Below are positions 36,553-51,720 of a stretch of 64,000 nt of DNA, in pieces. This stretch comes from Candidatus Aerophobetes bacterium Ae_b3b (lineage in GTDB: Bacteria > Aerophobota > Aerophobia > Aerophobales > AE-B3A): contig NJBP01000004.1 of the NCBI GenBank assembly GCA_005223085.1, positions 855 to 64,854 on the forward strand. The letters run 5' to 3'. A program made the translations under genes and the position numbers. Each line of letters begins with the position of its first letter. The stretch's first letter is position 1. The notes beneath the pieces were generated by a model that saw only the letters and a program-made list of their open reading frames with translations, did no database searches and was not told the DNA's origin.

Positions 36553-38094
36553 ATGAAAAGAAACAAAGTGATACTTGGTGCGGTGGTGACATTGGCGGCT
36601 CTATTGCTAGTGTCTGTGGGAGTGGCTCCAGTATTTTGCTACACCGCCGCCCAGGAAAAATATTTTCCCCGGGTAGATCGGAAAATGTCCCCGTTCTTAA
36701 TGGCCCGGTGGGGAATTGTCCCTGGATATCAATTCCCCAACGATTGGGTCAAGACAGTGGATTGGTCAGAGATTAAGAAAAAATACGGCGGAACTACGGT
36801 GACTATGGCCATTCAGGGACACGATGTTTCCGCCCCGGAGATGTTCAAAAAGGACTTCGAGGCCCTTTCCGGAATTAAGGTCGAGCTATACGGTGTTCCC
36901 TCAGAAGAGTTCACTGAGAAACTGCTGGTGGAATTCCTTGCCGGGACTGCCAAATACGACACCGTGGAGTACTACCAGGGCGACACCGGAATGTTCATTC
37001 CCTATCTAGCTGATCTAGCTCCGTATGTGACCAAATTTAAATATACGGACATCAAGGATATTCACCCAGTTTATTTCTGGATTCACTCACTCCGCGACGG
37101 CAGAATAGTCGCCCTCCCCTTTGATAGTGACTGTCGATTACTGCATTATCGCCCCAAGATGCTGGCACTGGCCGGATATGATCGACCACCCAAAACCTGG
37201 ACAGAAACCCTCGAGTACTGCAAAAAGCTAGAGCAGGCACTACCCGAGGGAACATATGCCATTGGATTCCCGGGATCTCGTCATTTTGGGGCTCTCAAGG
37301 CCTGGATGGATATTGCCGGTTCTGAAGGGGTAGAGTTCTTTACCGAAGGCTGGAAGGTAGCTCTTAACACTCCCGACGGAGTGGGAGCTCTCAGGACAAT
37401 GATGGAGCTTTCCAAGTACGCACCTCCGGGTCTAAAGAACTGGGGCTACTCTGAGTGTCGGGAAGCCTGGTTGGGCGGAAAAATGGCTATGGTCCAGCAG
37501 TGGCAGTGCGTGGGAAGACAAATGTACGATCCCGAACTCTCTGAGTTCGCTCTGGAAGATCCGCGCCCGGAAAGTGCTCCCTTACCTCAGGGAACCGGGC
37601 CCAATGCTCGAGAGGCCTACAGTGTCGTTCAGGGATCCTCTGCAAGTTTGACTGAAGTTAGCAAAAACAAGGAAGCAGCTGCCATCTGGCTTTTCTTCCT
37701 CAATGGAACGGAAACCCAGTTCGTCTATTCTATCTCCGGTACCGGAGTCGAGACAGGCTCCAGGAAGGTTCTGGAGAATCCCGTCTATCAGAAAGGATTC
37801 CCTCCCGCCAAAGCTTGGCTCTATGAGCTGGACTATGCCAATGCTGAACAGCTATGGATTTCAGAATGGTCAACTCTGGAATCGTTAGGTACGATGATTG
37901 TCAACTATGGACTGGTGGGAGAATATACTCCTGAAAAAGCCATGGAGATTTTAGAGAAGAGGTGGACCCAAGTTATGAAACGGGCTGGATACTATCTGCC
38001 GGGAGCACCACCGGTACCCAGCGCCTACTGGCCAGAAATCAGGGATGCGTTTATTGAGAAAGTCAACGAGCTCTTCGATAGTCTCGGAGTATAA
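36553..38094 (+). CDS. ABC transporter extracellular solute-binding protein (carbohydrate, family 1 type)
   Basis: Signal/anchor peptide MKRNKVILGAVVTLAALLLVS. 513 aa. Followed by two MalF/MalG-type permeases. Confidence 0.8.
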   Translation: MKRNKVILGAVVTLAALLLVSVGVAPVFCYTAAQEKYFPRVDRKMSPFLMARWGIVPGYQFPNDWVKTVDWSEIKKKYGGTTVTMAIQGHDVSAPEMFKKDFEALSGIKVELYGVPSEEFTEKLLVEFLAGTAKYDTVEYYQGDTGMFIPYLADLAPYVTKFKYTDIKDIHPVYFWIHSLRDGRIVALPFDSDCRLLHYRPKMLALAGYDRPPKTWTETLEYCKKLEQALPEGTYAIGFPGSRHFGALKAWMDIAGSEGVEFFTEGWKVALNTPDGVGALRTMMELSKYAPPGLKNWGYSECREAWLGGKMAMVQQWQCVGRQMYDPELSEFALEDPRPESAPLPQGTGPNAREAYSVVQGSSASLTEVSKNKEAAAIWLFFLNGTETQFVYSISGTGVETGSRKVLENPVYQKGFPPAKAWLYELDYANAEQLWISEWSTLESLGTMIVNYGLVGEYTPEKAMEILEKRWTQVMKRAGYYLPGAPPVPSAYWPEIRDAFIEKVNELFDSLGV

Positions 38095-38133
38095 CGACTT
38101 CGCTTCATCGCCACAGGAACCACTGTAAAAAGA

Positions 38134-38160
38134 GGGGCCCAGTTTCTGCAGCTGGGCCCC
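38134..38160 (+). other. intercistronic 9-bp GC-rich stem-loop between SBP and permease genes
   Basis: GGGGCCCAG-tttctgcag-CTGGGCCCC. Confidence 0.5.
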
Positions 38161-38182
38161 AGAACCAAGAAGGTGTCTTATA

Positions 38183-39067
38183 GTGAAGAAGCTTAAGTGG
38201 AGAAAACTTCTGGTTATCCTGGCCCTGCTGGGCCCAGCCATGGCTATGTTCATAGGACTTACCGTCTATCCTTTCATCAAAAACCTCATCTGGAGTACTA
38301 CCTTTTTTGTCCTCTACAAACCTACAAGCCAATACGTTTCTGCTGGTCTGGAAAACTACAAGGATATTCTGTTTGGGATTGAATTCTGGAACAGCGTCGA
38401 ATCCAGTTTAGTAATCGTTTTTGGAGCCCTGGCTATAGAGTGTTTCATTGGCCTGGGAGTCGCTCTGGTGCTAAATGAGAGGTTCCGGGGACGGGGCATT
38501 CTGAGGACTCTCTTCATTATCCCCATGGGAGTTATGCCCATAGTAGCCGGAGTGGTCTGGAAACTGATGCTCTTTCCTGGAGGGAGTCTAATTAGCGACA
38601 TCCTGGTGAAGATGCGATTGGCTTCCGGTCAGCTCGACTTCTGGGGTGATGTCCGGCTAGCCCGACTGAGTGTCATGGCGGCGGACATCTGGGGCTGGAC
38701 CCCTTTTGTGGGCCTTATTCTTCTGGCTGGCCTGCAGGCCATCCCCAGTGAGTTATACGATGCGGCCCAGGTGGACGGTGCCTCACAGCTGCAGAGATTC
38801 ACCCATGTGACCGCCCCCCTGCTCAAGTACGCCATAATTGTTGCTCTTATGTTTCGGGGAATGGATCTCCTTCGTCTTTTTGACACGGTGTACATGATGA
38901 CCCAGGGAGGTCCCGGATATGCTACAGAAGTCATCAGTTTCTTTATCTACCGAAAAGGCTTTTCGGAGTTTGGTGTGGGATACGCGGCTGCTACGTCGGT
39001 CATAGTATTCGTGGTAATCTTCGTCATAGCTCAAATTACGGTGCGCAAGTCCGGTATTGCTGCCTGA
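38183..39067 (+). CDS. carbohydrate ABC transporter permease (MalF/UgpA-like)
   Basis: GTG start, six TM segments, and the EAA-loop region ELYDAAQVDGASQLQRFTHVTAPLL. Confidence 0.85.
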   Translation: MKKLKWRKLLVILALLGPAMAMFIGLTVYPFIKNLIWSTTFFVLYKPTSQYVSAGLENYKDILFGIEFWNSVESSLVIVFGALAIECFIGLGVALVLNERFRGRGILRTLFIIPMGVMPIVAGVVWKLMLFPGGSLISDILVKMRLASGQLDFWGDVRLARLSVMAADIWGWTPFVGLILLAGLQAIPSELYDAAQVDGASQLQRFTHVTAPLLKYAIIVALMFRGMDLLRLFDTVYMMTQGGPGYATEVISFFIYRKGFSEFGVGYAAATSVIVFVVIFVIAQITVRKSGIAA

Positions 39068-39078
39068 GAGGTCTAAAT

Positions 39079-39909
39079 GTGAAGAGAATAAACATACCTA
39101 AAACCATCGGCATTTGTCTGGTAGTCCTCTACGTTGTGGCGGCTCTAATTCCAGTCTACTGGGTGGTTACCACCGCCTTTAAACCCCGGATAGAAGTGTA
39201 TACCTTTCCGGTGAAGTATATACCTTCCTCTTTCACCTGGGAGCCAGCTCATAATTCCCTTACCCAGCGGCCAACCATGAGTTTCCTCCGAAACAGTCTC
39301 TTTGCTGCAGTCGGCGCTACTATTCTCGCTCTGGCGCTGGGAGTGCCAGCTGCCTATGCCCTAGCCCGAGAGAAATTCCCGGGAAGGAAGGATATAGCCT
39401 TTTTTATCTTGACCACCAGAATGTTCCCTCCGGTAACTATTTGCATCCCCATCTACTTTATTATTAGGAATGTAGGGTTGTTGGATAGGCTCGCCGGTTT
39501 GATAATCGTATACGCCATGTTTAACCTGGCTATCATCATTTGGGTAATGAAGGGATACATTCAACAGGTGCCGGTGGAAATTGAGGAAAGTGCCAGGGTA
39601 GATGGTTGCACCAAACTGGGGGCTTTTATCAGAATCACCCTGCCTCTGCTTGCCCCCGGAATGGCTGCGGTAGCAATTATTTCTCTGGTATTGTCGTGGA
39701 ACGAATTCCTCTACGCTCTCATACTTACTCATTCGCCGGCTGCCAAAACCTTGCCGGTGGGAATTGCTGAATTCATTGGCGGTGCCTACGGCATTCTCTG
39801 GGGTGAAATCTGCTTCCTTGGTACTGTAGCCATTATCCCTATGATCGTGCTCATTATGGTGGTTCAGAAATACATCGTCCGCGGTTTGACTATGGGCGCC
39901 ATAAGATAA
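39079..39909 (+). CDS. carbohydrate ABC transporter permease (MalG/UgpE-like)
   Basis: GTG start and the EAA-loop region EIEESARVDGCTKLGAFIRITLPLLAPG. Confidence 0.85.
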   Translation: MKRINIPKTIGICLVVLYVVAALIPVYWVVTTAFKPRIEVYTFPVKYIPSSFTWEPAHNSLTQRPTMSFLRNSLFAAVGATILALALGVPAAYALAREKFPGRKDIAFFILTTRMFPPVTICIPIYFIIRNVGLLDRLAGLIIVYAMFNLAIIIWVMKGYIQQVPVEIEESARVDGCTKLGAFIRITLPLLAPGMAAVAIISLVLSWNEFLYALILTHSPAAKTLPVGIAEFIGGAYGILWGEICFLGTVAIIPMIVLIMVVQKYIVRGLTMGAIR

Positions 39910-40589: not shown

Positions 40590-41873
40590 GTGGCTAGATT
40601 TGATCCGATTGTTTTCTCTTCCTGGGAGGGACTCCATCAGGAAAACTATTTGATAGCCATGTATTTTATGGAGGTGGAGGCTAGCGTAGATCCAGTAGAG
40701 TTGGGTGTAGAGATCGCAGTGGACCAGACTACTGGCACCTGGACTGCCGTACCAGCCGAAACACCGGAAGTCCGTCGTCACCATATGGCCAAGTTGATAG
40801 CTCTTCACGAAGTTCCAAATTATGAGTTTGAGGTTCCTCAGGATACCAAGACAAGGCGCTATCTAATTCAGATAGCATTCCCTACCATAAACTTTGGACC
40901 CCAGATTCCCATGCTGTTGAGCAGTGTGTTTGGCAACTTATCGTCTCGTGGCTGGATAAAATTACTGGACCTTCAGTTTCCCAGAACCTTTCTGGAAAGT
41001 TTTCCTGGTCCAAAATTTGGAATTGAAGGATTGCGCAGGCTTCTAGGGATATGGGATAGACCAATCTTATGTAATGTTATTAAACCCTGTACTGGTATCA
41101 GTCCTGAAGTAGGAGCTGAACTTGTCTACCAGGCAGCCAGGGGAGGGGTAGATATCATTAAGGACGATGAGTTGATCGGTGATGCTCCCTTTTCTCCAAT
41201 GGTAAAGCGAGTGAAGGAATACATGTGCCGACTCAAGGAAGCCGACGAACAGAAAGGCGAAAAGACGCTATTTGCAATAAATGTTACTGACCGGCAGGAT
41301 AAGATTCGGGATAACGCTCTGAGAGCGATTGAGGCAGGGGCTAACGCACTGATGATAAGCTTTGCAACGGTCGGTTTCTCCATGGTACGAACTCTGGCAG
41401 AGGATAAGTCCATAAATGTTCCCATAATGGGGCATATGAATTTTGCCGGCGCGCTTTGCGAATCACCATGTTCAGGTGTGAGCTCCGAACTAATCTGTGG
41501 AAAGTTGGCCCGAATGGTGGGTATGGATATGGTTCTTGTTTATCCTCCTCAGAGCCGATTTCATCTCATAGAAAATAAGTTTGAGCGTGTTGTGCAGATA
41601 TTGCAGCAACCTTTTTCCAAAATAAAACCAAGCTTTCCTTTATTAGCTGGCGGTGTTCATCCGGGAATAGTTCCTGCTACTCTAGACTCAATGGGGACTG
41701 ATGTCATTATTGGCGCCGGAGGTTCTGTTCACGGTCATCCTGGTGGTGCTGTAGCCGGAGCTCGGGCTTTCCGGCAGGCCTTTGAAGCCTATTCTCGTGG
41801 CGTTGACTTGGAAGGATGGGCTCAGGATAAAGAGGAGCTGCAGCAAGCCTTGGGACTTTGGGGAACAGCATGA
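40590..41873 (+). CDS. RuBisCO-like protein (form IV RuBisCO large-subunit homolog)
   Basis: GTG start with AAAGGAGG 7 nt upstream. Motifs are VAVDQTTGTW, GNLSS, IKPCTGIS (KPK changed to KPC; Cys codon at 41088-41090), GGVDIIKDDE (KDDE retained, at the same 26-residue spacing from the KP motif as in RuBisCO), IMGHMNFAG and GAGGSVHGHPGG. Confidence 0.85.
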   Translation: MARFDPIVFSSWEGLHQENYLIAMYFMEVEASVDPVELGVEIAVDQTTGTWTAVPAETPEVRRHHMAKLIALHEVPNYEFEVPQDTKTRRYLIQIAFPTINFGPQIPMLLSSVFGNLSSRGWIKLLDLQFPRTFLESFPGPKFGIEGLRRLLGIWDRPILCNVIKPCTGISPEVGAELVYQAARGGVDIIKDDELIGDAPFSPMVKRVKEYMCRLKEADEQKGEKTLFAINVTDRQDKIRDNALRAIEAGANALMISFATVGFSMVRTLAEDKSINVPIMGHMNFAGALCESPCSGVSSELICGKLARMVGMDMVLVYPPQSRFHLIENKFERVVQILQQPFSKIKPSFPLLAGGVHPGIVPATLDSMGTDVIIGAGGSVHGHPGGAVAGARAFRQAFEAYSRGVDLEGWAQDKEELQQALGLWGTA

Positions 41874-42865
41874 GCTTGGTAGACGAAGAAGAAAAACAGC
41901 GGTCTGTTCTGGCTCCTGAGTTCTATAGAAAAATGTTAGCCGTTAGGCTATTCGAGCAGCGTGCTATTGAGCTTTACACTCGAGGAGAGATTCGGGGAGT
42001 TATTCACCCCTATATCGGTGAGGAAGCTGTAGCTGTAGGAGCGTGCGCTGTTCTCAACAATGATGACTACGTGGTTTCTACTCATCGCGGCCATGGCCAT
42101 TGCATTGCCAAAGGAGCTTCATTGGATCGGATGATGGCCGAACTTCTGGGACGTAGCAATGGCTACTGTCGAGGAAAGGGTGGTTCCATGCATCTGGCCA
42201 CCTTTGAAGTGGGAATGTTGGGTGCCATAGGTATCGTGGCAGCAGGTATTCCCATTGCTGTGGGAGCTGGACTATCAGTGAAATTGAGAAAGACTCGTCA
42301 GGTAGTAATTTGCTTTTTCGGTGATGGTGCTGTCAACCAGGGAGCATTCCATGAGGGTTTAAATATGGCTGCTGTGTGGAACTTACCGGTTGTCTTTCTG
42401 TGTGAAAATAATTTCTATGCTATCTCTACTCACGTGAGCAGAGTTTCGGCAGTAACCGAGGTGGCTCGGAGGAGTTGTGCCTATGACATTCCAGGTAAGC
42501 GAGTCGATGGCAATTCCGTATGGGCTGTCTACGAGGCGGTTCAGGAGGCAGTAGCCCGGGCTAGACATGGACATGGTCCAAGTCTCATCGAGGCTCTGAC
42601 CTACCGCCATGAAGGACATTACAAGGGAGACCCCGGTCATTATCGACCACCAGAGGAGTTAAAAAAATGGCAACGGAAGGATCCCATTAAAAAGTTAAGG
42701 AAAGAGTTACTAGCTAAAAATTGGCTGGAGCCAAAAGCACTGGAGGAACTGGAACAGGAGGTTGCCCAAGATGTACAAAGGGCCGTTGAGTTTGCCAGGA
42801 AGAGTCCCTATCCTGCAGAGGAGGAACTCACAAGCGATATATTCGGAGGAGACCATAGGAAATGA
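41870..42865 (+). CDS. ThDP-dependent dehydrogenase E1 component, alpha subunit (acetoin/pyruvate/2-oxoisovalerate dehydrogenase type)
   Basis: Motifs ...IHPYIGEEAVAVGA...STHRGHGH...GKGGSMH...GDGAVNQGAFHEGLN.A..W.LPVVF.CENN. The ATG at 41870 overlaps the RLP stop (ATGA). The listed ORF start is 41858. Confidence 0.85.
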   Translation: MSLVDEEEKQRSVLAPEFYRKMLAVRLFEQRAIELYTRGEIRGVIHPYIGEEAVAVGACAVLNNDDYVVSTHRGHGHCIAKGASLDRMMAELLGRSNGYCRGKGGSMHLATFEVGMLGAIGIVAAGIPIAVGAGLSVKLRKTRQVVICFFGDGAVNQGAFHEGLNMAAVWNLPVVFLCENNFYAISTHVSRVSAVTEVARRSCAYDIPGKRVDGNSVWAVYEAVQEAVARARHGHGPSLIEALTYRHEGHYKGDPGHYRPPEELKKWQRKDPIKKLRKELLAKNWLEPKALEELEQEVAQDVQRAVEFARKSPYPAEEELTSDIFGGDHRK

Positions 42866-43839
42866 GGGAAATTAGCTACCGAGACGCCATAAATGAGGCT
42901 TTACAAGAGGAGATGAAGCGCGATGAAAGAGTGATACTACTTGGCGAAGACATCTCGCACTATGGTGGACCTCGGCGAGTAACCTGGGGTCTTGTTGAGA
43001 GTTTTGGTGAAGACCGGGTCAGGGATACACCTATTTCAGAGAATACTATTATAGGCACGGGTCTGGGAGCCGCTATTACCGGTATGCGGCCGCTTGTGGA
43101 GATTTCGTATATAGATTTTGCTTTACTGGCTATGGATCAAATTGGTAACCAAGTAGCCAAATTATCCTATATGACCGGTGGTCAAACCAAGGTACCTTTG
43201 GTTATTCGGACCCAGGGTGGGGCTGGTGGTGGCACCGCTGCTCAGCACTCGCAGAGCTTGGAGATGCTATTTGTACATATTCCTGGGCTGAAAGTGGTAA
43301 TTCCGGCTACTCCTTATGATGCTAAGGGATTAATTAAGATGGCTATCCGGGATGATAGCCCGGTGGTCTTCATTGAACACAAGTTGCTCTATAGTACCAA
43401 GGGAATGGTTCCGGAAGAAGAGTATCTTATTCCTTTCGGTAAGGCGGCAATTCGCCGCAGTGGTTCGGATATTACCATGGTAACTTATTCGGCCATGTTG
43501 TCAGAAGTGATGGCGGCTGCTGACGTACTCCATCAGAAGGAGATAGAAGCAGAAGTGCTTGATCTGAGGACCCTTATCCCATTAGATATTGATGGTGTTC
43601 TGGCCTCGGTGAAAAAGACAGGGAGGTTACTGATAATCCATGAGGCCTCTTTGGTTGGAGGAATGGGGGCTGAAATTGCTGCCCAAGTTCAGGAACAGGC
43701 ATTTGACTATCTGGATGCCCCTGTTATCCGTCTGGGAGCAGTTCCGATACCTATTCCTTATTCAGAGTCCCTGGAGCGGCTGGTTTTTCCCAATAAAGGG
43801 AAAATAGTTACTGCTAGCCGTGCCCTAATTGTTGCTTAA
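42862..43839 (+). CDS. ThDP-dependent dehydrogenase E1 component, beta subunit
   Basis: Motifs ISYRDAINEAL.EEM.RDERV.LLGEDI...DTPISEN...AQHSQSLE...PGLKVV.PATPYDAKGL. ATGA overlap with the alpha subunit. Confidence 0.85.
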   Translation: MREISYRDAINEALQEEMKRDERVILLGEDISHYGGPRRVTWGLVESFGEDRVRDTPISENTIIGTGLGAAITGMRPLVEISYIDFALLAMDQIGNQVAKLSYMTGGQTKVPLVIRTQGGAGGGTAAQHSQSLEMLFVHIPGLKVVIPATPYDAKGLIKMAIRDDSPVVFIEHKLLYSTKGMVPEEEYLIPFGKAAIRRSGSDITMVTYSAMLSEVMAAADVLHQKEIEAEVLDLRTLIPLDIDGVLASVKKTGRLLIIHEASLVGGMGAEIAAQVQEQAFDYLDAPVIRLGAVPIPIPYSESLERLVFPNKGKIVTASRALIVA

Positions 43840-43938
43840 CCTGTGTCGGTTTGACACCCTAAAAATACTTCCCGTAAGCCACGTCGCTTGACGGCGTGGT
43901 AAGGGAGGTGTCCAGCGAAGCTGCGCTAAGTTGCTCTT

Positions 43939-44345
43939 TCAATTAGAATTCGGCAATTTGCACCAAAGACAGGAATTTGACGAGTGTCCAAAGAGGTTAT
44001 GAAGAACAAAGTTGTAAACGTTCCTAAACGCCCTCGTAGTCTCCAGAGACGAGACCCTCGCTCTAGGGAGAAGCTTCCTGAGGTTGATCACTGCTGCTGT
44101 GAGGAGAAGTTGGGTCTCCATCATAGCGAGTGACCTGGCAACCAATTGCCCGAGCACTATCAATGTACCTTTTTCGATCTGGGTAAGTGTTGGATTCTTC
44201 CTTTTTCGCACAGTAGATAATTTAGTTAGTGCGATGGCTCTTAAATCGTCTTGGTAGCTTTCTACCCCGAGGACAGATGAAAAGATCTTGCTCTATCATA
44301 ATAACAGTATATTCAGGAGCGTTGGGAAGGCAGCAAATGAATGCA
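43939..44345 (-). mobile_element. remnant of an IS1182/IS5-like transposase gene (two out-of-frame fragments, DDE core deleted)
   Basis: The fragment 44315->44223 reads EYTVIMIEQDLFICPRGRKLPRRFKSHRTN* (a y.CP.G..L zinc-ribbon-like motif of such transposases). The listed ORF 43939..44211 reads ...TQIEKGTLIVLGQLVARSLAMMETQLLLTAAVINLRKLL, matching the conserved transposase C-terminus (..vE..fg.lK...rar.rgl.k...q.lLtAaaiNl.rl). Confidence 0.5.
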
Positions 44346-44384
44346 GTATATATCAGAAACTACTAAGGGAGAGGAAGGGGGATT

Positions 44385-44409
44385 TCAAGGGGAAAGAATT
44401 TCCCCTTGA
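44385..44409. other. perfect 10-bp hairpin next to the IS remnant
   Basis: TCAAGGGGAA-agaat-TTCCCCTTGA. Confidence 0.4.
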
Positions 44410-44543
44410 TTATCTTGTACGGAGGTAAACGTCCGCTTCTAGCATTTATTCTTCTTCAGCACCGTCAAAGTGATGGGTTTTGACCTGTGAGGGGATAATA
44501 GTATGCCGATTCGCTGAGAAAACAGTGAAAGGGGTTTTTGAGG

Positions 44544-45638
44544 ATGAGACTCTTGTTGACCAGTAAACTAGAAGATGAAGACCTGAAGATATTGAGTCGC
44601 TACTTTGATGAAATAAGAATTCGTGGTCTCTACGTGCGTTCCAAGATTCTCCGGCCAGAGGAACTGGCTGCGGAGTTAGGAAATGTTGATATTCTGGTAG
44701 TAGAGTTTGATCAGGTAACACCAGAGGTATTGGATACCGCACCCAACCTGAAGTTAATAGTTTCGCTGCGGGCTGGTGCAGGCCGTAACATTAACCTGAG
44801 GGCTGCCACAGAAAGAGGCATACTGGTGGCCTGCTGTCCCGGTCGTAGCGCTGATCAGGTGGCTGATTTCACCCTGGGTGTGATAGTAGCCCTTGTCCGA
44901 CACATTGCTGAGACTCACTGTCTAATCAAGTCTCGACAGCTTACCGAGAAAAATCCCAAGCGAGAGGGCTTTGCCAAAGGTGATGTTGTCTGGATTATGA
45001 ATGATCCCCAGAACTTTAGCTTCTTGCGTTTCAAAGGACCCATATTAGCTGGTCGGACTCTGGGTATTTTGGGATTTGGTGTCATCGGCCGGGAGGTAGC
45101 CCGCCGAGCCGGAGGCTTTAAGGTAACTATGATTGCCCATGATCCCTACGTTTCACCTGAGGAAATAGCAGAATTTAGAGTAAAGCTGGTTGATTGCGAC
45201 ACTCTGTTCAGAGAGTCAGACTTTCTTACGGTGCATGTTAAGGATAGTCCTGAAACCCGTGGCTTGGCTGGAAGATATCAGTTCTCCCTGATGAAATCTA
45301 CCGCTTACTTTATCAATACGGCTCGGGGTTCCGTCGTTGACTACAATGCCTTATACGAGGTGCTGGTTAACAAGAAAATTGCCGGTGCAGCTCTGGATGT
45401 ATTCGAGGAAGAACCGCTGCCCCCTGATCACCCACTGCTGGATCTGGACAATGTCCTACTGACTCCTCACATTGCCGGGGCCAGTCCCGATTGCTATAGG
45501 GTATCCTCTCCCCTGGCGAGAAAGGCAATTGAGGACTTTCTGGCTGGTCGCAAACCGCGATTTCTGGCCAACGAGCAGGTCTGGGAACGCCGAAGGTTCA
45601 GAATCGACAAAGACAAATCAGATTACCGGGAAAATTAA
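44544..45638 (+). CDS. D-isomer-specific 2-hydroxyacid dehydrogenase (PGDH-like) with an insertion in the catalytic domain
   Basis: Motifs GILGFGVIGREVARR (GxGxxG), ...INTARG..VD..AL...L....I.GAALDVFE.EP... and LLTPHIAGAS. An alternative TTG start lies at 44538. Confidence 0.8.
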   Translation: MRLLLTSKLEDEDLKILSRYFDEIRIRGLYVRSKILRPEELAAELGNVDILVVEFDQVTPEVLDTAPNLKLIVSLRAGAGRNINLRAATERGILVACCPGRSADQVADFTLGVIVALVRHIAETHCLIKSRQLTEKNPKREGFAKGDVVWIMNDPQNFSFLRFKGPILAGRTLGILGFGVIGREVARRAGGFKVTMIAHDPYVSPEEIAEFRVKLVDCDTLFRESDFLTVHVKDSPETRGLAGRYQFSLMKSTAYFINTARGSVVDYNALYEVLVNKKIAGAALDVFEEEPLPPDHPLLDLDNVLLTPHIAGASPDCYRVSSPLARKAIEDFLAGRKPRFLANEQVWERRRFRIDKDKSDYREN

Positions 45639-47152
45639 TGAGCTCTCGGGAATTGGTAATTGGAATAGATATTGGAACTTCTCAAGCCAAAGGAGGGGTA
45701 TTTGATCCCCAAGGCAGATGTCTGGGGAAGGCCTCCTTCTCGTATGCCATACATTCCCCACATCCTTCTTGGGATGAGGTTGACGCTGAGGACTGGTGGC
45801 AGGCGGTCTGTCACATAATCCACCAATCTCTTGCCACAGCCAGAGTGTCCAGCAGGGATATTGCTGCCATATCAGTCAGTAGCCTGCTACCCTGCTGCCT
45901 TCCGGTCGATCACCAGGGAAACCCCCTCCGTAGGGCCATTATCTGGCGCGATCGGCGCACCGATCAAGAGTGCGCTTGGATGGAGCAGCACATCGGAGGC
46001 GATGCCTGCTTCGAAATCTCCGGCAACCGTATTGACCATTATTTCTGGGGTCCTAAGGTGCTCTGGATAAAGCATCAGGAGCCAAAAATCTTTAAGAGAA
46101 CCTGGAAGCTGCTACAGGCTCACAGCTACATGGTGCTGAAGCTTTGTGGTGAAACGGTGACTGATTTCACCTGTGGCAATCTCTCTATACCCTTCTATGA
46201 TTACCGCAGGAAATGCTGGTCACCTGCAATGAGTGAGAAGATGGGGGTTCCCATTGAGATGCTGCCTGATTTAAGACCTTCACACATGGTGGTCGGTCGG
46301 GTGAGCACCAACGTAACCGGAGAAACTGGTCTTGATAGGGGTACCCTGGTAGTCACAGGGTGTGGAGACTTTGCTTCCTCAACCCTGGGAGCGGGCGTTT
46401 ATCGTCAGGGAGAGGCTTGCATGATGTTGGGAACCGCCGGAAACTTACTCATCCCTATGGATAACCCCAACTTCGATCCCCGTCTCATTAATTCTTCTCA
46501 TGCCTTGCCCAACCGGTACATAAGTTTTGCCACTTCTTATGCTGGTGGCTCACTTCAGTGGTTACGGCAGGTTCTGGCTGGATCAAGAAACGAATTTGAC
46601 ATCTCTTACCAACAGTTGGATTTGGAGGCCTCCCGCATCCCGCTAGGATCAGAGGGACTGCTGTTTCTCCCATTTCTTCCGGGAGAACTTACTATTAACT
46701 GGGACCGGACATCACGAGGTGTCTTCTTTGGCCTAACTCTGAATCACACCAGAGGACACCTCTACCGAGCTGTACTGGAATCGATTGGATATCGATACCG
46801 TCACATGCTAGAAATCATGGCCAGTCGCGGAATCAGGGTGAAAAAAGCAACCCTTATCAATGGCGGTGGAAAAAGTCCAGTTTGGCGACAAATTCTGGCC
46901 GACATTACCGGTATGCACCTTAATTACACGGAGTCAGAGGGAGCTCCCCTGGGAAACGCAGTATTGGCTGCCATGGGAGCCAAGCTCATCAAGAGTGGCG
47001 AGGAAGTAAAGAACTGGTTATCGATAAAGAGTGAAACTGAACCCGACCAGAGAGCTTATCGGTTATACAACGATTACTTTCAACTGTACAAAAGACTTTA
47101 TGAGCACCTGAAGGATGATTTTCAGGAACGCTATCGCTTTGTTGGCAGCTAA
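45638..47152 (+). CDS. FGGY-family carbohydrate kinase (paralog 1)
   Basis: Motifs LVIGIDIGTSQAKGGVFD...RRAIIWRDRRT...GGGKSPVWRQILADITG. Its start overlaps the upstream stop (TAATG). Confidence 0.85.
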   Translation: MSSRELVIGIDIGTSQAKGGVFDPQGRCLGKASFSYAIHSPHPSWDEVDAEDWWQAVCHIIHQSLATARVSSRDIAAISVSSLLPCCLPVDHQGNPLRRAIIWRDRRTDQECAWMEQHIGGDACFEISGNRIDHYFWGPKVLWIKHQEPKIFKRTWKLLQAHSYMVLKLCGETVTDFTCGNLSIPFYDYRRKCWSPAMSEKMGVPIEMLPDLRPSHMVVGRVSTNVTGETGLDRGTLVVTGCGDFASSTLGAGVYRQGEACMMLGTAGNLLIPMDNPNFDPRLINSSHALPNRYISFATSYAGGSLQWLRQVLAGSRNEFDISYQQLDLEASRIPLGSEGLLFLPFLPGELTINWDRTSRGVFFGLTLNHTRGHLYRAVLESIGYRYRHMLEIMASRGIRVKKATLINGGGKSPVWRQILADITGMHLNYTESEGAPLGNAVLAAMGAKLIKSGEEVKNWLSIKSETEPDQRAYRLYNDYFQLYKRLYEHLKDDFQERYRFVGS

Positions 47153-47173
47153 CAGAGGACGAGGAGTGGTGCG

Positions 47174-48706
47174 ATGGTTGTAATAGGATTGGATCTGGGA
47201 ACTACTGTCTGTAAAGCTGGGCTCTTCGATACCACAGGAAAACTTTTAAAACTGGTTAGAAGGGAATATCCGGTTACCAGTGATTATCCGGGGTGGGCTG
47301 AGCAGAATCCTGATATTGTTTGGAACACCATTCGAATGGTTTTGTCAGAGATCGCTGAAGATAAACAGTTAAACGATCCTATCAAGGCGATTTGCATCTC
47401 AGCTCAGGGTGAGGCAGTAGTCTTTCTCGATCAACGGGGCAGGCCCTTGCGTAATTCCATCCTCGGGATGGATATGAGATCGGTGGAGCAGGCAGAGCGT
47501 TTAAAAAGCAAGCTGGGAGCCGAATGGTTTTTAGAGACCCCCGGAGTTCCTCCTCATCCCCTCACTACAGTAGCCAAGATCCTCTGGGTTAAGGAACATG
47601 AGCCGGAGATTGCCCAAAAAACTGTTCGCTACCTTTGCTATGAGGATTTTGCCTTCTTCAAACTAGGCGACGTTCCCGCCATCGACTACTCCCTTGCTTG
47701 CCGGACTGGGCTTTTTGATATGAGAAAGAAAAAATGGTCAGCGAAGATATTGGATTATACCGGGATAAACGAAGATCAACTGGCCAACATCTACCCCTCG
47801 GGAGAGGCGATCGGCAAAATTAACCGAAAAATAGCTCATACTTTGGGCTTACCGACCGATATTCTACTGGTCACTGGCGGACACGATGTGACCTGTGCGG
47901 CTTTGGGAGCAGGTGCCATCAACAAGGGAGTGGGGGGAGATATTCTGGGGACGGCGGAAATTTTTGGCGTTACTGTGGAGAACAACTCAGTGGCGAAAGA
48001 AATAAAACCGAGTAACTTTGCCTGCTACTGTCACGTAGTTCCGAACAAGTTCTGGCTGATGACTTTGAATCACACCGGTGGGCTTCTCCTCAGGTGGTAT
48101 CGAGATAACTTTGGTGAGTCAGAGGTAAAGCTGTCTGAGAAAGAAGGAAAAGATGTCTTTGACTTAATAGTAAGTAAAAGTAAGCCCGACATTGCAGAAA
48201 GCATGATCCTTCCCCATTTTGTAGGCAGCGGCACTCCCTGGATAGATGCTCGTTCCAAAGGAGCAATAGTGGGTTTGAGCATTCACACCAACAAAGCCGA
48301 TATTATTCGAGCCATCCTGGAAGCCGTCATTTATGAGCAAAAGATAAGTATAGACATTTTTGAAAAATACGGAGTCGATATTAAAGAGATCAGAGCAGTG
48401 GGGGGAGGTAGTAAATCTCGGTTCTGGCTACAGATAAGGTCAGATATCCTGGGAAAAGCTGTTCTTACTTTGGAAACTGAGGAGGCTTCCTGCCTCGGAA
48501 CCGCCATTCTTGCCAACTATGCTCTGGGGAATTATCCCTCTATTGAGAACGGCGTCGAACAAATGGTGAAGATGAAGGACAGAATCGAACCGAACAAAAA
48601 ACTTTACTCCCGGTACCAGCAAAGATATCTTATTTACCAAGAGCTTTACCCAGCCCTCAAGAAGATCAATTATTCGCTTCAGCAAATAAGCTCCAGGGGA
48701 GGTTGA
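47174..48706 (+). CDS. FGGY-family carbohydrate kinase (paralog 2)
   Basis: Motifs VVIGLDLGTTVCKAGLFD...GGHDVTCAALGAG...VGGGSKSRFWLQIRSDILG. Confidence 0.85.
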   Translation: MVVIGLDLGTTVCKAGLFDTTGKLLKLVRREYPVTSDYPGWAEQNPDIVWNTIRMVLSEIAEDKQLNDPIKAICISAQGEAVVFLDQRGRPLRNSILGMDMRSVEQAERLKSKLGAEWFLETPGVPPHPLTTVAKILWVKEHEPEIAQKTVRYLCYEDFAFFKLGDVPAIDYSLACRTGLFDMRKKKWSAKILDYTGINEDQLANIYPSGEAIGKINRKIAHTLGLPTDILLVTGGHDVTCAALGAGAINKGVGGDILGTAEIFGVTVENNSVAKEIKPSNFACYCHVVPNKFWLMTLNHTGGLLLRWYRDNFGESEVKLSEKEGKDVFDLIVSKSKPDIAESMILPHFVGSGTPWIDARSKGAIVGLSIHTNKADIIRAILEAVIYEQKISIDIFEKYGVDIKEIRAVGGGSKSRFWLQIRSDILGKAVLTLETEEASCLGTAILANYALGNYPSIENGVEQMVKMKDRIEPNKKLYSRYQQRYLIYQELYPALKKINYSLQQISSRGG

Positions 48707-48710
48707 TAAA

Positions 48711-50018
48711 TTGGAACTGCTTTATCAAAAACTAAAATCTCTTCAAGAAAAAAAACAGCCTATAAAGGTGGGCCTGGTTGGATGCGGCCAGATGGGATCA
48801 GGAATGGTAAGTCTGGTAAGCCAGATGCCCGGATTAGAAGTTGCAGCCGTGGCCGAATTAGACCTGGAAAAAGCCAAAGGTGCTTATGAGACTGCTGGAA
48901 TTCCCGAGGGAAAAATTGCCGTTGTTGAGGACCCGGAAAAAGCGGAGGATCTCCTAGGTAGAGGCAAAGTCATCATCTGCAAAAATGCTTTGACTCTGGT
49001 TTCTATCCCTTCTCTTCAAGCAGTGGTGGAAGCTACTGGTATCCCTCGAGTCGGTGCCCAGATTGCTTTAGAATGCATCTTTCACCAAAAGCATGTAATT
49101 ATGCTGAATGTGGAAACCGAGGTGACGGTGGGTTGGATACTGAAAAAAATGGCTGATAAAACCAATGTTATCTACACCGTCTCGGCGGGAGACGAGCCGG
49201 GAGCCATAAAAGAGCTCTACAACTTCGCCTCTTCTTTAGGATTTTCGGTGGTGACCGCCGGGAAGGGTAAAAATAATCCCCTAGATTTGGATGCAACTCC
49301 TGATGAGTGCCAGGAAGAAGCCCTGAGAAAAGATATGAACCCCAAAATGCTAACTTCCTTTATAGACGGGACAAAAACAATGATTGAAATGGCTGCAGTG
49401 GCCAACGCCACTGGTCTCGTTCCCGACGTCCCGGGAATGCATGGTCCCAAAGTTGATGTCTCTGAACTCACTCAGGTATTAATACCCAAGAAAGACGGAG
49501 GTATATTGAGTAGAAGTGGGGTGGTTGACTACTCTATCGGCAAAGTGGCTCCGGGTGTTTTCCTGATAGTAACCACGGGTAAAGAAAGGGTAAGAAAAGA
49601 TTTAGGATTCTACGGCATGGGAGAAGGTCCCTATTACCTTCTTTACCGTCCTTATCATCTATGCAGTATAGAGACTCCTCTTTCCGTAGCTAGAGCGGTT
49701 CTTTTTAATGAACCCACCTTAAATTCAGAACAAAGAGTAGCTGAAGTGGTAACGGTAGCCAAGCAGAATCTAGATGTCGGAGTCACCATTGATGGAATAG
49801 GGGGCTACCATGTGCTTGGACGAATCTATCCAGCGCAAGAAGCAAGAAAAAAAAATCTTTTACCTTTAGGACTAGCTGAAGGAGGCAGAGTCAAGATAAG
49901 AGTCGCCAAAGGGGAATACATCACTATGGATATGGTTGAGCCAGAAACGGAATCGACCGTTTACCAGCTTTGGAAATTACAGGAAAGCCTCTGGCAATCC
50001 GAGCTTAAGAGTAAATAA
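48711..50018 (+). CDS. NAD(P)-binding oxidoreductase with C-terminal SAF domain (COG4091 'homoserine dehydrogenase-like' family)
   Basis: TTG start, a Rossmann motif VGLVGCGQMGSG, and a C-terminal SAF-like beta-clip (...VAKQNLDVGVTIDGIGGYHVLGRI...). Confidence 0.65.
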   Translation: MELLYQKLKSLQEKKQPIKVGLVGCGQMGSGMVSLVSQMPGLEVAAVAELDLEKAKGAYETAGIPEGKIAVVEDPEKAEDLLGRGKVIICKNALTLVSIPSLQAVVEATGIPRVGAQIALECIFHQKHVIMLNVETEVTVGWILKKMADKTNVIYTVSAGDEPGAIKELYNFASSLGFSVVTAGKGKNNPLDLDATPDECQEEALRKDMNPKMLTSFIDGTKTMIEMAAVANATGLVPDVPGMHGPKVDVSELTQVLIPKKDGGILSRSGVVDYSIGKVAPGVFLIVTTGKERVRKDLGFYGMGEGPYYLLYRPYHLCSIETPLSVARAVLFNEPTLNSEQRVAEVVTVAKQNLDVGVTIDGIGGYHVLGRIYPAQEARKKNLLPLGLAEGGRVKIRVAKGEYITMDMVEPETESTVYQLWKLQESLWQSELKSK

Positions 50019-50046
50019 GTAAGACCGGGCTAAAAAGGAAGGTAGG

Positions 50047-50679
50047 TTGAATTTAGAAAAAGTAGAGGTGGTCCCAAGCAGGATGCTGCGGGTGAGGATA
50101 CCGCAAGAACAGGGAGTAAGATCGGTCTTTTGCCGGACAGAATCAGGGACTGCCGGGACAGGTAAGCCAATGCCGAAAAAGCTAGAATCTGAAGAAGGCG
50201 AGAAATACCACTTTGCTGTGGGAAGCGATCATGCCGGGTTCTCTCTAAAGGAGAGGATCAAAGAGTACCTCTGTGGAGAAGGAAGAGCTGTCCTGGATGT
50301 AGGTATCCATACTTTGAGGAGTGTCGGCACCGGGCCCGTAGCCGAGAAAGTGGGACGTCTGGTGGCCAAGGGGAAATGCGAAAAGGGTATTTTGGTTTGT
50401 GGAACCGGTATTGGTATGGCAATGGGAGCAAATAAAGTCTTCGGTATCAGAGCAGCCCTCTGTTACAACCAGTTTACTGCCTCTTATGCCAAGCGCCACA
50501 ATGATGCCAACGTAATTTGCCTGGGAGCCCGGGTTCTGGGGGAAGAACTGGCCATTGAGTGTGTCAGGACCTGGTTAAGGGAAGAATTTCTGAGGGATAA
50601 ATACGCCCAGCGCCTTGCCTATCTAGATGTTATTGAAAATCATTCCTGCCGGAATAAACTAGCAAAAAAGGGAGAGTGA
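50047..50679 (+). CDS. RpiB/LacA/LacB-family sugar-phosphate isomerase
   Basis: The core FAVGSDHAGFSLKERI...GILVCGTGIGMAMGANKV.GIRAA......A...R.HNDANV.CLGARV is typical. Family members usually begin near the GSDHAG motif, so the true start may be the ATG at 50170. Confidence 0.8.
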   Translation: MNLEKVEVVPSRMLRVRIPQEQGVRSVFCRTESGTAGTGKPMPKKLESEEGEKYHFAVGSDHAGFSLKERIKEYLCGEGRAVLDVGIHTLRSVGTGPVAEKVGRLVAKGKCEKGILVCGTGIGMAMGANKVFGIRAALCYNQFTASYAKRHNDANVICLGARVLGEELAIECVRTWLREEFLRDKYAQRLAYLDVIENHSCRNKLAKKGE

Positions 50680-50682
50680 ACT

Positions 50683-51720
50683 TTGAAAGCGTTAGTATAT
50701 CATGCCATCCAAGACTTTCGCATTGAAGAGATTGAAAAACCCGCCTGTCCACCAGAAGGCTTACTTCTAAAAGTTAAAGCTTGTGGTTTGTGTGGAGGAG
50801 ATGTTCGCACATACTTTGGGGGTCACAAAAGTGTCACTCCTCCCTGGATTATCGGCCATGAGATTGCGGGAATAGTAGAAGAAGTGGGCGATCAAACTAA
50901 AGGTTTCCATAAGGGAAATCGTCTGGCGGTAGCTCCTGTCGTTTACTGCGGTAAGTGCCCCTTTTGCCTCGAGGGGAAACATTATCTTTGCCAGAATGTC
51001 AAGGAAATTGCTCAGCATTGGCCAGGAGGATTTGCTGAATTTATGGCTATTCCGGAAGATGCTTTGAAATTGGGAAATGTTAATGTCATTCCTCAAGGTC
51101 TTTCCTTTGAAGAAGCTGCCATTTCCGAGCCTCCATCTTCGTGCCTTAATGCGCAGGATCGTGCTCAAGTTGGAATGGGAGATAGCGTGGTTATCATCGG
51201 AGCAGGGCCGGTCGGCTGTTTTCACTGTGAAATTGCCCGTATTCGTGGCGCTCTAAAGATTGTTATGGTAGATTTGTTGAATGAACGGCTAAAACTGGCC
51301 GAGCGATTTAGCCCCGATCTTCTTCTTGAGAGTAGTGACTCTGGATATCTTAAGAAGTTGAATGATGAAACAGAAGGTTTGGGGGCAGATGTCGTTATTG
51401 TGGCCTGCTCTTCCACCAAAGCCCAGCAGGATGCGCTAGAAATTGCCAGAAACGGAGGCAGAGTCATCTTTTTTGGAGGGCTTGCTCCGGGGAAAAGTTC
51501 CTCCAGCCTTGATGCTAACCTGCTCCATTACAAGAATCTGCAGATTTTTGGTGCCTACAGTTTTTCTCCTGAGCATCATCGGCTTTCTTTGAAGCTAATA
51601 TCTAAAGGAAAAATAGATGCCAAAAAGTATATCACTCATGTTATTCCCCTGGAGAACATCATTGAAGGCATTAAGGCGGTGAAGGAAGGGATAGTTTTAA
51701 AAGTAGTGGTCAGGATTTAG
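50683..51720 (+). CDS. Zn-dependent medium-chain alcohol/polyol dehydrogenase
   Basis: TTG start. Motifs CGLCGGDV, GHEIAGIV, the structural Zn Cys cluster CGKCPFCLEGKHYLC, and the Rossmann GAGPVG. Confidence 0.85.
   Translation: MKALVYHAIQDFRIEEIEKPACPPEGLLLKVKACGLCGGDVRTYFGGHKSVTPPWIIGHEIAGIVEEVGDQTKGFHKGNRLAVAPVVYCGKCPFCLEGKHYLCQNVKEIAQHWPGGFAEFMAIPEDALKLGNVNVIPQGLSFEEAAISEPPSSCLNAQDRAQVGMGDSVVIIGAGPVGCFHCEIARIRGALKIVMVDLLNERLKLAERFSPDLLLESSDSGYLKKLNDETEGLGADVVIVACSSTKAQQDALEIARNGGRVIFFGGLAPGKSSSSLDANLLHYKNLQIFGAYSFSPEHHRLSLKLISKGKIDAKKYITHVIPLENIIEGIKAVKEGIVLKVVVRI

Follow-up and report, generated by a model that had tools for sequence, protein, structure and literature searches.

The six genes at positions 44538-51720 of the window (the whole 64,000-nt stretch analysed here, from Candidatus Aerophobetes bacterium Ae_b3b) are one conserved unit for the conversion of a sugar or polyol. 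The hub of this unit is the fourth gene, whose sequence places its product among the DXR type II/DRL (PF21135) reductoisomerases rather than among plain SAF-domain oxidoreductases. Judging from such comparisons, we propose, with about an even chance of being right, that the module adds phosphate to a C5 ketose or polyol and converts a branched tetritol phosphate and a linear pentulose 5-phosphate into one another. By analogy with related loci, the substrate probably derives from D-apiose, a branched plant sugar. If true, this would be a sugar route built on a relative of an isoprenoid-pathway enzyme, straightening a branched sugar to a pentose phosphate; we found no paper describing a DRL-based apiose-type route. 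The general logic of the original prediction, in which a polyol or rare sugar taken up by the cell undergoes oxidation, phosphorylation and isomerisation, holds.

Locus layout and the DRL gene

The locus contains the following features:
35479..39909, + strand: SorC-type regulator and CUT1 ABC importer (substrate-binding protein, SBP, and two permeases), from Pfam
40590..43839, + strand: RLP and E2-less E1alpha/E1beta, from Pfam
43840..44537, no strand: non-coding gap of ~700 nt from E1beta to the six-gene toolkit
44538..45638, + strand: D-isomer-specific 2-hydroxyacid dehydrogenase family protein (2-Hacid_dh), 366 aa, or 364 aa from the ATG at 44544
45638..47152, + strand: FGGY kinase 1 (FGGY-1), xylulokinase-like, 504 aa, FGGY_N + FGGY_C
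47174..48706, + strand: FGGY kinase 2 (FGGY-2), 510 aa, FGGY_N + FGGY_C
48711..50018, + strand: DXR type II/DRL-family reductoisomerase, 435 aa, PF21135 DRL_cat
50047..50679, + strand: RpiB-type sugar-phosphate isomerase, 210 aa, LacAB_rpiB
50683..51720, + strand: Zn-dependent medium-chain polyol/alcohol dehydrogenase (Zn-ADH), 345 aa, ADH_N + ADH_zinc_N

The six toolkit genes are co-directional and tightly packed, as predicted. The stop of the 2-hydroxyacid dehydrogenase gene overlaps the FGGY-1 start (spacing -1 nt) in the expected TAATG at 45636-45640, and the other gaps, put at 4-22 nt in the original prediction, come close to that range with exact values of 21, 4, 28 and 3 nt. A Shine-Dalgarno-like purine run lies upstream of each of the six starts, including a strong Shine-Dalgarno sequence before the rpiB start TTG at 50047, and the Pfam scores of all six products are far over the cut-offs. 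Because the six-gene order recurs at 87-97% amino-acid identity in a second genome of the genus (G003), which has the whole block together with RLP-E1alpha/beta and the gap, this order is not due to chance. The gap itself is 97% identical at the nucleotide level in G003, contains an 11-bp hairpin at 44385-44409 and yielded no pathway-gene remnant in tblastn; it may be a transcription-unit boundary. Patterns resembling promoters or terminators were no more frequent than in shuffled sequence.

The SorC regulator and CUT1 importer are the probable regulator and uptake system for the whole cluster. The RLP-E1alpha/beta genes are a separate upstream module that is joined to the toolkit in one genus only. 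Within it, the E1 gene is translationally coupled to the RLP gene. The two other E1alpha/beta pairs of the genome also occur with RLPs and without DRL, and a further RLP-E1 locus (L087) has Zn-ADH and FGGY genes without DRL; therefore, E1 does not need DRL. OiaX was considered for the upstream RLP and rejected at 219.7 bits (cut-off 700).

The fourth product matches PF21135 DRL_cat over positions 1-164 of 164 with 235.9 bits (cut-off 27) and the Brucella abortus DRL (3upl/3upy) with an E-value of 4e-110 and about 50% identity, a fold-level sequence match within the same family. We read the phmmer alignment to 3upl_A against the diagnostic residues listed in PMC3847144, which separate DXR-II from DLO1/DLO2 or serve in substrate binding or dimer formation. 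Brucella G121, E174, F178, K191, K193, T229, H250, R320, Y322 and V351, among them the fosmidomycin/phosphate anchors K191, K193 and T229, are all identical in the window DRL, and the K, K, T, H, R and Y are invariant across all three DRL paralogues of the genome (G000). The family had been described as a poorly characterised SAF-domain dehydrogenase, which does not stand, as a crystal structure and DXP-to-MEP activity, the sole activity shown for the family, are on record (PMC3847144). With a DXR-II/DRL enzyme in fourth place, the key step is probably a redox-coupled skeletal rearrangement, which is absent from erythritol/threitol routes.

In contrast to the Brucella DRL, the window gene shares a probably SorC-regulated operon with genes for kinases, dehydrogenases and an isomerase and is one of three paralogues, and its nearest kin outside the phylum sit in sugar operons of DXR-I genomes, often with GH140. 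The DRL family replaces DXR-I phyletically in Brucella and Bartonella, and likewise in the order of the window. DXR-II also occurs in Chloroflexus, which has only the MVA pathway, and in Finegoldia, which has neither pathway (PMC3847144).

DRL neighbourhoods in other genomes

We surveyed the 10-kb flanks of the 80 closest DRL loci, which come from many phyla, and found two settings. In one, DRL is accompanied by Zn-ADH, an FGGY kinase and an isomerase for sugar phosphates, with GH140 apiosidases as a frequent addition; in the other, it occurs with E1alpha/E1beta/E2. Zn-ADH was counted at 34 loci, FGGY at ~37, SIS isomerase and FucI-like isomerase at 20 each, a VOC protein at 11 and a GH140 apiosidase at 6, the last in at least 4 phyla and in neighbourhoods annotated with Pfam. 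Anywhere in the genome, GH140 was present in 11 of 16 genomes with the ZnADH-FGGY context, in 0 of 5 with the DRL-E1 context and in 2 of 14 controls. RLP was found at none of the 80 loci.

Trees of these DRLs (including Bartonella, Mesorhizobium and Chelativorans DXR-II relatives, with no DLO outgroup) placed the window DRL within a 21-row clade of ZnADH+FGGY(+GH140) loci (SH-aLRT 96; FastTree 92) and, in both trees, apart from E1-linked DRLs. By adjacency and by DRL clade, the window locus thus belongs to the DRL-ZnADH-FGGY-isomerase module, its RpiB holding the place of the SIS isomerase seen in 20 other loci. Neither GH140 (PF13204) nor a FucI-like isomerase had a match in the genome of the window (88.6% complete), which counts against the apiose reading; it is relatives from other phyla that supply the link to apiose.

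All five partner genes recur beside DRL in further genera of Aerophobetes, at loci that have neither RLP nor E1. These sub-blocks comprise a stand-alone FGGY2-DRL-ZnADH-RpiB operon (L097), FGGY-FucI-like-DRL-ZnADH (G005, whose sister locus thus has the FucI-like gene), 2HADH-FGGY1-DRL (G018) and FGGY2-2HADH-ZnADH-DRL (G024 and G025). Together with the complete lack of RLP at the surveyed loci, they speak against the RLP linkage as a general trait. It had also been envisaged that clusters lacking RLP/E1 might already be assigned to a known pathway; such orthologous clusters do exist, and none of them is so assigned.

Partner enzymes and the proposed pathway

Because both kinases carry FGGY_N and FGGY_C, they are members of the FGGY family. 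XylB is the closest relative of each, with E. coli XylB (2itm) as the best solved structure for FGGY-1, and the XylB model TIGR01312 gave 351.6 bits for FGGY-1 and 340.6 bits for FGGY-2; as both fall under the equivalog cut-off of 380.25, neither is filed as XylB. The two are only 27% identical, and each belongs to its own kinase group recurring beside DRL, which fits two substrates better than the bisphosphate that had been offered as the other option. FGGY-1 is 85% identical to the DRL-adjacent kinase of G018, 48% to that of the RLP-E1 locus L087 and 32-35% to kinases of FGGY-DRL-ZnADH loci. FGGY-2 is the kinase most consistently adjoining DRL, with 56-59% identity to DRL-adjacent kinases in other Aerophobetes and 37-42% to those of ZnADH-DRL-FGGY loci in Clostridia and Chloroflexota, including the Massiliimalia apiosidase cluster. 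Apulose kinase AplK was rejected for the window kinases: with E. coli SE15/Pectobacterium AplK as queries, both were <28% identical and neither was among the six best genome matches (C5:19784-21280 at 42%, the remainder at 25-28%).

The window RpiB scored 159.9 bits with LacAB_rpiB over residues 57-191 and 149.1 bits with TIGR01120 rpiB (cut-off 138.65), its N-terminal extension of ~55 residues lying outside the latter model. DerI (D-erythrulose-4-phosphate isomerase, NF051858) was rejected at 105.2 bits against a cut-off of 240, so the suggested erythritol/threitol-like isomerase was not upheld. A 65% identical orthologue ends the four-gene operon of L097, and the genome has a second RpiB gene at C22. 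The Zn-ADH shares 58-66% identity with the Zn-ADHs encoded next to DRL in other Aerophobetes, 45-50% with those at DRL loci in Spirochaetota, Bacillota and Planctomycetota and 50% with that of L087. The 2-hydroxyacid dehydrogenase (2-Hacid_dh_C, 185.8 bits) has PGDH and glyoxylate reductases as its nearest solved structures, and its orthologues (54-56% and 83% identity) adjoin DRL in the Aerophobetes genera g12, g13 and g8. Neither dehydrogenase reached an NCBIfam equivalog cut-off.

In the proposed pathway, a C5 ketose or polyol would be imported, the Zn-dependent dehydrogenase would interconvert ketose and polyol forms, and one of the two xylulokinase-like FGGY kinases would phosphorylate the product. 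The DRL would then carry out the reaction of DXR, in which an alpha-ketol or retro-aldol/aldol rearrangement coupled to NAD(P) would link a 2-C-branched tetritol 4-phosphate with a linear 2-pentulose 5-phosphate, and RpiB would feed the pentulose phosphate to the pentose-phosphate pathway. For D-apiose, the chain would lead from apulose through apiitol and apiitol 1-phosphate, the hydroxymethyl analogue of MEP, to Xu5P or Ru5P and would be redox-neutral overall. The 2-hydroxyacid dehydrogenase and the second kinase fall outside these putative steps. Counting against a hydroxymethyl substrate is the kinship of the window SBP, which forms a reciprocal best hit (32%, 216 bits) with the SBP from alphaproteobacterial DRL-E1-E2-PfkB clusters (L066, L077); these clusters better fit a methyl-branched substrate.

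Alternative readings and known systems

An isoprenoid role, in which the DRL is or doubles as the DXP reductoisomerase and its neighbours make DXP from an imported or salvaged deoxy sugar or polyol, is unlikely in our view. Here 1-deoxy or 5-deoxy substrates would be used, for example 1-deoxy-D-xylulose phosphorylated by a XylB-like kinase, and the missing DXS would be bypassed; XylB, to which both kinases are closest, phosphorylates 1-deoxyxylulose. The genome of the window has IspG and IspF, while no DXR-I, no DXS over the cut-off and no HMG-CoA reductase were found in it. Of 31 relatives, DRL alone is present in 20 and DXR-I alone in 8, the two never occur together, and DXS is restricted to DXR-I genera and absent wherever DRL is present. 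Because of this complementarity and the missing DXS, DRL proteins of the order very probably act on DXP, which counts against the apiose-type reading, and the family very probably also supplies DXR activity in this bacterial order. Complementation of an E. coli dxr mutant succeeded with every DXR-II clade member that was tested (PMC3847144). The one DRL detected in G025 (92% complete) sits in an FGGY-FucI-FGGY2-2HADH-ZnADH-DRL operon, and in G002 the stretch between the same flanking genes has lost the partner genes and retains an intact window-type DRL, which suggests that DRL is valuable alone and likewise counts against the apiose-type reading. Against this role, the order-wide, apparently vertical DRL lineage is that of the C35 paralogue (clade of 18, support 100), not the window type, which nests among DRLs of genomes already having DXR-I. 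Of five genomes with the ZnADH-FGGY context, four have DXR-I and IspG and one has neither; therefore, DRL is dispensable for isoprenoids in those genomes. The SorC regulator and ABC importer, moreover, indicate an inducible nutrient operon, and there is no evident natural source of sufficient deoxypentose. E1alpha/beta, RLP and split transketolase all diverge from the phyletic pattern of DRL, which leaves no obvious DXS substitute among them.

The cluster could instead degrade 2-C-methyl-D-erythritol or 1-deoxy-D-xylulose, which we rate as quite unlikely. A kinase would give MEP or DXP, the DRL would oxidise MEP to DXP, and the upstream E1alpha/beta would treat DXP as an acetoin analogue and split it to give glyceraldehyde 3-phosphate plus a C2 unit, so that only the reaction known for the DRL family is needed. 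E1alpha-E1beta directly adjoin DRL in ~25 of the 80 loci, with E2 next in 21 of those, and Alphaproteobacteria add a PfkB kinase and a CUT1 importer, to whose SBP that of the window is related as described above. The window E1alpha/beta are of the same subfamily as these acetoin/pyruvate dehydrogenase-type E1 pairs (46-58% identity), with human PDH E1alpha as the closest solved structure at only 232 bits over ~310 residues; in genus g2, a SorC 61-62% identical to that of the window heads SorC-FGGY-DRL-E1alpha-E1beta clusters. However, the window differs from the DRL-E1-E2 loci in its DRL clade, in the RLP coupled to its E1, in the 700-nt gap before the DRL block and in the lack of an E2 (the only E2-like gene of the genome is on contig C37). 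E1 also occurs without DRL, and Zn-ADH and RpiB would be superfluous.

Erythritol/threitol catabolism (Brucella EryA-D/EryH/EryI; Mycobacterium smegmatis EltD/LerK/LerI/DerI type) likewise takes a polyol through oxidation and FGGY-type phosphorylation to an RpiB-family isomerase and the pentose-phosphate pathway. Such pathways are typically assembled from Zn-ADH, FGGY kinases, an isomerase of the RpiB family and an ABC importer of the polyol type, and the window has all of them. A conventional pathway for tetritols or pentitols (erythritol/threitol/ribitol type), with the fourth gene as a plain dehydrogenase, is nevertheless improbable. Tetritol routes have no DRL-type enzyme, whereas the fourth gene retains all residues that distinguish DXR-II from the non-DXR relatives DLO1/DLO2 (PMC3847144), RpiB passes the RpiB and not the DerI cut-off, none of the six genes reaches an NCBIfam equivalog for a known polyol enzyme, and the DRL-ZnADH-FGGY core is conserved across phyla as its own unit.

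Like the known D-apiose routes, the proposed DRL-centred route would convert a branched C5 sugar to ordinary phosphates, and FGGY kinase, SorC regulator, RpiB-type isomerase and RLP families are common to both. According to PMC13753588, the known routes are one transketolase route (ApsI-AplK-AptA/B) and three oxidative ApnO routes, the latter using the RLPs OiaC/OiaX (Carter et al. 2018 as summarised in PMC13753588 and PMC13001218). The enzymes that define these routes are all missing from the window block, and Pfam found no KARI-like ApnO, DUF1537 kinase (OiaK) or OiaX/OiaC-type RLP domains in the six genes. ApnO is, like DXR, a redox-coupled isomerase but is KARI-like (PMC13753588) and not a DRL, and the proposed linearising step would act on a polyol phosphate rather than on apionate.

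Organisation of the six-gene block

ORF calls and Pfam searches confirmed the six co-directional genes and the domains claimed for them. All six ORFs score far over the Pfam cut-offs, a Shine-Dalgarno-like run precedes every start, and the spacings between consecutive ORFs are −1 (a TAATG overlap), 21, 4, 28 and 3 nt.

Features of the six-gene block (assignments by Pfam)
44538-45638, + strand: 2-hydroxyacid dehydrogenase ORF (2-Hacid_dh)
45638-47152, + strand: first FGGY kinase ORF (FGGY-1)
47174-48706, + strand: second FGGY kinase ORF (FGGY-2)
48711-50018, + strand: NAD-binding oxidoreductase ORF (DRL, PF21135)
50047-50679, + strand: RpiB-type isomerase ORF (LacAB_rpiB)
50683-51720, + strand: zinc-dependent alcohol dehydrogenase ORF (Zn-ADH)

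Upstream on the + strand, with the genes assigned by Pfam, the order is SorC regulator, CUT1 ABC importer, a gap of 680 nt, RLP, E1alpha/E1beta pair and a gap of 700 nt. The same order of RLP-E1alpha/beta, gap and six genes is found in genome G003 of the same genus, with 87-97% amino acid identity. The gap between E1beta and the block (43840-44543) is non-coding, is 97% identical in nucleotide sequence in G003 and includes an 11-bp hairpin at 44385-44409. Promoter and terminator pattern scans gave counts no higher than in shuffled sequence, and a tblastn search of both gaps of about 700 nt for decayed pathway genes (E2, FucI-like, SIS, GH140 and others) found none.

At its N-terminus the RpiB is extended by about 55 residues (50047-50220) that the family model does not cover, and its ORF starts with TTG behind a strong Shine-Dalgarno sequence. 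The protein has 210 aa, compared with 174 aa for its orthologue in locus L097 of another genus, and against the NCBI profiles it scores over the RpiB cut-off and under the DerI cut-off. PDB searches with the solute-binding protein (SBP) of the importer and with the Zn-ADH named no informative ligand.

The fourth gene, its neighbours and its phylogeny

The fourth gene had been described in the original prediction as a poorly characterised SAF-domain dehydrogenase. It belongs to PF21135 ("Oxidoreductase DRL, catalytic domain"), and its sole solved relatives are the structures of the DXR-like enzyme of Brucella abortus, 3UPL (apo) and 3UPY (with fosmidomycin), matched with an E value of 4e-110. 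The residues that set DXR type II (DXR-II) apart from the inactive DLO1/DLO2 proteins, bind fosmidomycin or form the dimer have been listed (PMC3847144); G121, E174, F178, K191, K193, T229, H250, R320, Y322 and V351 (Brucella numbering) are all identical in the alignment with the window DRL. Because the Pfam match, the Brucella match and all listed residues agree, the fourth gene belongs to the DXR type II family, its probable place in the DXR-II clade being based on these residues and about 50% identity, with trees that covered the closest DRLs. DXR converts DXP to MEP (2-C-methyl-D-erythritol 4-phosphate): the skeleton is rearranged first, and a reduction completes the reaction. The type II enzyme has been characterised only as an alternative isoprenoid enzyme, and its patchy distribution, which includes DXR-I bacteria and some without the MEP pathway, is an acknowledged puzzle (PMC3847144, PMC13001223).

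To survey its neighbourhoods, we aligned the three DRL paralogues of the window's genome, took the 80 closest DRL loci (one genome per species, 10-kb flanks) of a family, PF21135, with more than 568 loci, and scored flanking ORFs against window proteins and seed proteins from annotated neighbourhoods. Two settings dominate. In setting I, found in about 25 of the 80 loci, DRL adjoins E1alpha-E1beta, and a lipoyl-E2 is then present in 21 of these; the alphaproteobacterial examples also have a CUT1 importer and a kinase of the PfkB family. As a module, DRL-E1alpha-E1beta-E2 is conserved across Alphaproteobacteria, Bacillota, Chloroflexota and Actinomycetota (loci L066, L077, L062, L071, L075, L076 and about 15 more); the Rhizobiales versions also include a SorC regulator along with the CUT1 importer and PfkB kinase. 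This module reads as import, phosphorylation by the kinase, DRL and an acetoin-dehydrogenase-like cleavage, e.g. of DXP to acetyl-CoA and GAP.

In setting II, the neighbours handle sugars: across the 80 loci we counted an FGGY kinase in about 37, Zn-ADH in 34, a SIS isomerase and a FucI-like isomerase (Fucose_iso_C type) in 20 each, a VOC protein in 11 and a GH140 "Apiosidase" (PF13204) in 6. The six apiosidase-bearing loci are from Spirochaetota, Bacillota, Planctomycetota and one unclassified bacterium, and pre-computed gene tables agree. A DRL also lies in the apiosidase cluster of Massiliimalia massiliensis (L095). Genome-wide, GH140 was present in 11 of 16 setting-II genomes, none of 5 setting-I genomes and 2 of 14 controls; it was not found in the window's own genome (88.6% complete). 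Because four of five setting-II genomes have DXR-I and IspG and the fifth has neither, isoprenoid synthesis cannot account for DRL there, in agreement with the reported DXR-II of MVA-only Chloroflexus and of Finegoldia, which lacks both pathways (PMC3847144).

In an IQ-TREE phylogeny of 105 DRLs, with which FastTree agreed, the window DRL is nearest to those of the congeneric genomes G003 and G002 (support 100), followed by a pair of genus g2 loci (support 96). It lies within a 21-row clade (support 96) that is almost wholly setting II; in three of the rows an apiosidase is next to DRL. The paralogue from the same genome's contig C35 falls in a separate clade (support 100), whose 18 rows are all from Aerophobetes.

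In further genera the partners of the window DRL again accompany a DRL, and neither RLP nor E1 is with them: as four genes in an operon of their own, FGGY2(59%)-DRL(60%)-ZnADH(58%)-RpiB(65%), in L097; as FGGY-FucI-like-DRL-ZnADH in G005; as 2HADH(83%)-FGGY1(85%)-DRL in G018; and as FGGY-[FucI-like]-FGGY2-2HADH-ZnADH-DRL in G024 and G025. Because of this recurrence, we regard the six genes as a unit with DRL as its hub. The polyol or rare-sugar toolkit originally proposed is thus partly supported: the six-gene unit stands, the fourth gene is reassigned, and the link to the RLP narrows to genus g1, where alone the RLP-E1alpha/beta module is joined to the block, none of the 80 DRL loci having an RLP within its 10-kb flanks. 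This junction is new here, as are three variant features in Aerophobetes, namely RpiB replacing SIS, an extra 2-hydroxyacid dehydrogenase and the pairing of a single DRL with kinases of both types. The two kinases share 27% identity; FGGY-2 is 37-42% identical to kinases of ZnADH-DRL-FGGY loci, and FGGY-1 is 32-35% identical to those of FGGY-DRL-ZnADH loci. Because the kinases fall into separate DRL-linked groups and single-kinase loci are common, we set aside the suggestion that the two paralogues yield a bisphosphate.

Comparison of window positions 32000-54200 with the corresponding G002 locus (L103) showed MarR and clpC on the left and an aminotransferase and an RnfC-like gene on the right in both. 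Between these flanks G002 has a 60-residue FGGY-2 remnant, an intact window-type DRL (87%) and one unrelated gene. With the same genes on both sides, the 16-kb cluster amounts to an insertion/deletion polymorphism in this genus; in G002 DRL outlasted the loss of its partners.

A candidate route for branched C5 compounds and its rivals

In our estimate there is about an even chance that the block is a module built around DRL and handles a branched C5 sugar or polyol, probably one of the apiose family. D-Apiose is abundant in pectins and in the walls of seagrasses. Reverse DXR chemistry on the hydroxymethyl analogue apiitol 1-phosphate would give a linear pentulose 5-phosphate. Apiose would be isomerised to apulose by the FucI-like enzyme where present, apulose reduced to apiitol by Zn-ADH, apiitol phosphorylated to apiitol 1-phosphate by an FGGY kinase, and this converted to Xu5P or Ru5P by DRL; such a chain would use every conserved gene once and be redox-neutral overall. 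Of the published apiose routes, one runs through transketolase and three through ApnO, none with DRL (PMC13753588, PMC13001218), and a literature search covering openly accessible papers turned up no sugar route based on DRL. If the apiose reading is true, this would be a fifth, redox-neutral D-apiose route and DRL the second known redox-coupled isomerase in catabolism, after ApnO; a catabolic DRL that straightens a branched sugar or polyol phosphate would also explain the patchy distribution of DXR-II. ApnO itself is KARI-like, not a DRL-family enzyme. The window kinases are not AplK-like; elsewhere in the genome, at C5:19784-21280 and near a Zn-ADH, lies an FGGY kinase 42% identical to the E. 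coli apulose kinase AplK, a sequence match hinting that the organism may process apiose or apulose by another route too.

That methylerythritol or 1-deoxyxylulose is the substrate, with E1alpha/beta cleaving DXP as an acetoin analogue, would fit the DRL-E1-E2 linkage elsewhere, the 46-58% identity of the window E1 pair to the E1s of those loci and the reciprocal best hit between the window SBP and the SBP of those clusters. We nevertheless consider it quite unlikely, since the DRL phylogeny speaks against it, the cluster is without E2, and E1alpha/beta pairs also exist with RLPs but without DRL. A plain polyol pathway appears very unlikely.

An isoprenoid function for the block, bypassing DXS, is in our view unlikely, although several observations favour it. 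The window's genome has IspG and IspF, and we detected in it no DXR-I, no DXS over the cut-off and no HMG-CoA reductase. Across 31 genomes of the order, which are incomplete MAGs and close kin, so that the counts are not independent, DRL occurs in 20, DXR-I in 8, both in none and neither in 3, a pattern that is clean at genus level; canonical DXS is confined to the DXR-I genera. For the window-type DRL in particular, the one DRL detected in G025 sits in a sugar-type operon, and G002 has kept its copy beside the mere FGGY-2 remnant. The strict complementarity of DRL with DXR-I/DXS, which is new here, implies that DRL supplies DXR activity in the order, the vertical C35-type lineage being its simplest source, and it bears on the question of what replaces DXS in DXS-less bacteria (PMC10663253). 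None of three candidate DXS substitutes tracks DRL among the 31 genomes (E1alpha subfamily 24/31, RLP 8/31, split-transketolase C subunit 19/31). The 20 genomes with DRL and without DXS and DXR-I are the setting for a wider proposal, that the DRL sugar operons of the order are the missing isoprenoid entry, in which block-like kinases and dehydrogenases would produce DXP, starting from a deoxy-sugar or polyol that is imported or salvaged, for DRL to convert to MEP. We hold this to be distinctly improbable; if true, the MEP pathway would here start from nutrients and independently of DXS.

Related E1, RLP and transketolase-like clusters

A tight three-gene operon on contig C19 of the window's genome (L005, 193-3357) encodes the N and C subunits of a split transketolase-like enzyme (41% and 34% identity to AptA and AptB), followed by the third, divergent DRL paralogue, which has Ser in place of Brucella G121. 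Within the genome, the DXS model matches this C subunit best, at 219 bits and under the cut-off; the three-gene arrangement is not kept across relatives.

A metagenome scan with the window RLP returned eight loci, two of them useful: L086, arranged as in the window, and L087 (2577-13269), arranged differently. In L087 the RLP is 98% identical to the window's and E1alpha/beta just 88-90%; its neighbours are a GntR regulator, Zn-ADH (50%), an FGGY kinase (48%) and another CUT1 importer, and DRL is absent. Taken together, this suggests recombination or transfer of the RLP. Neither E1 nor DRL is present at L090 and L091, where RLP identity is 47-49%. The window's genome has two further E1alpha-E1beta-RLP clusters, at C10:1512-4871 and C23:8723-15792, and behind the latter lie two Zn-ADHs and an FGGY kinase. 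In a further polyol cluster of the same genome, at C22:400-15829, an apparently fused E1 (a 788-aa ORF) is accompanied by two FGGY/Zn-ADH pairs as well as a second RpiB.
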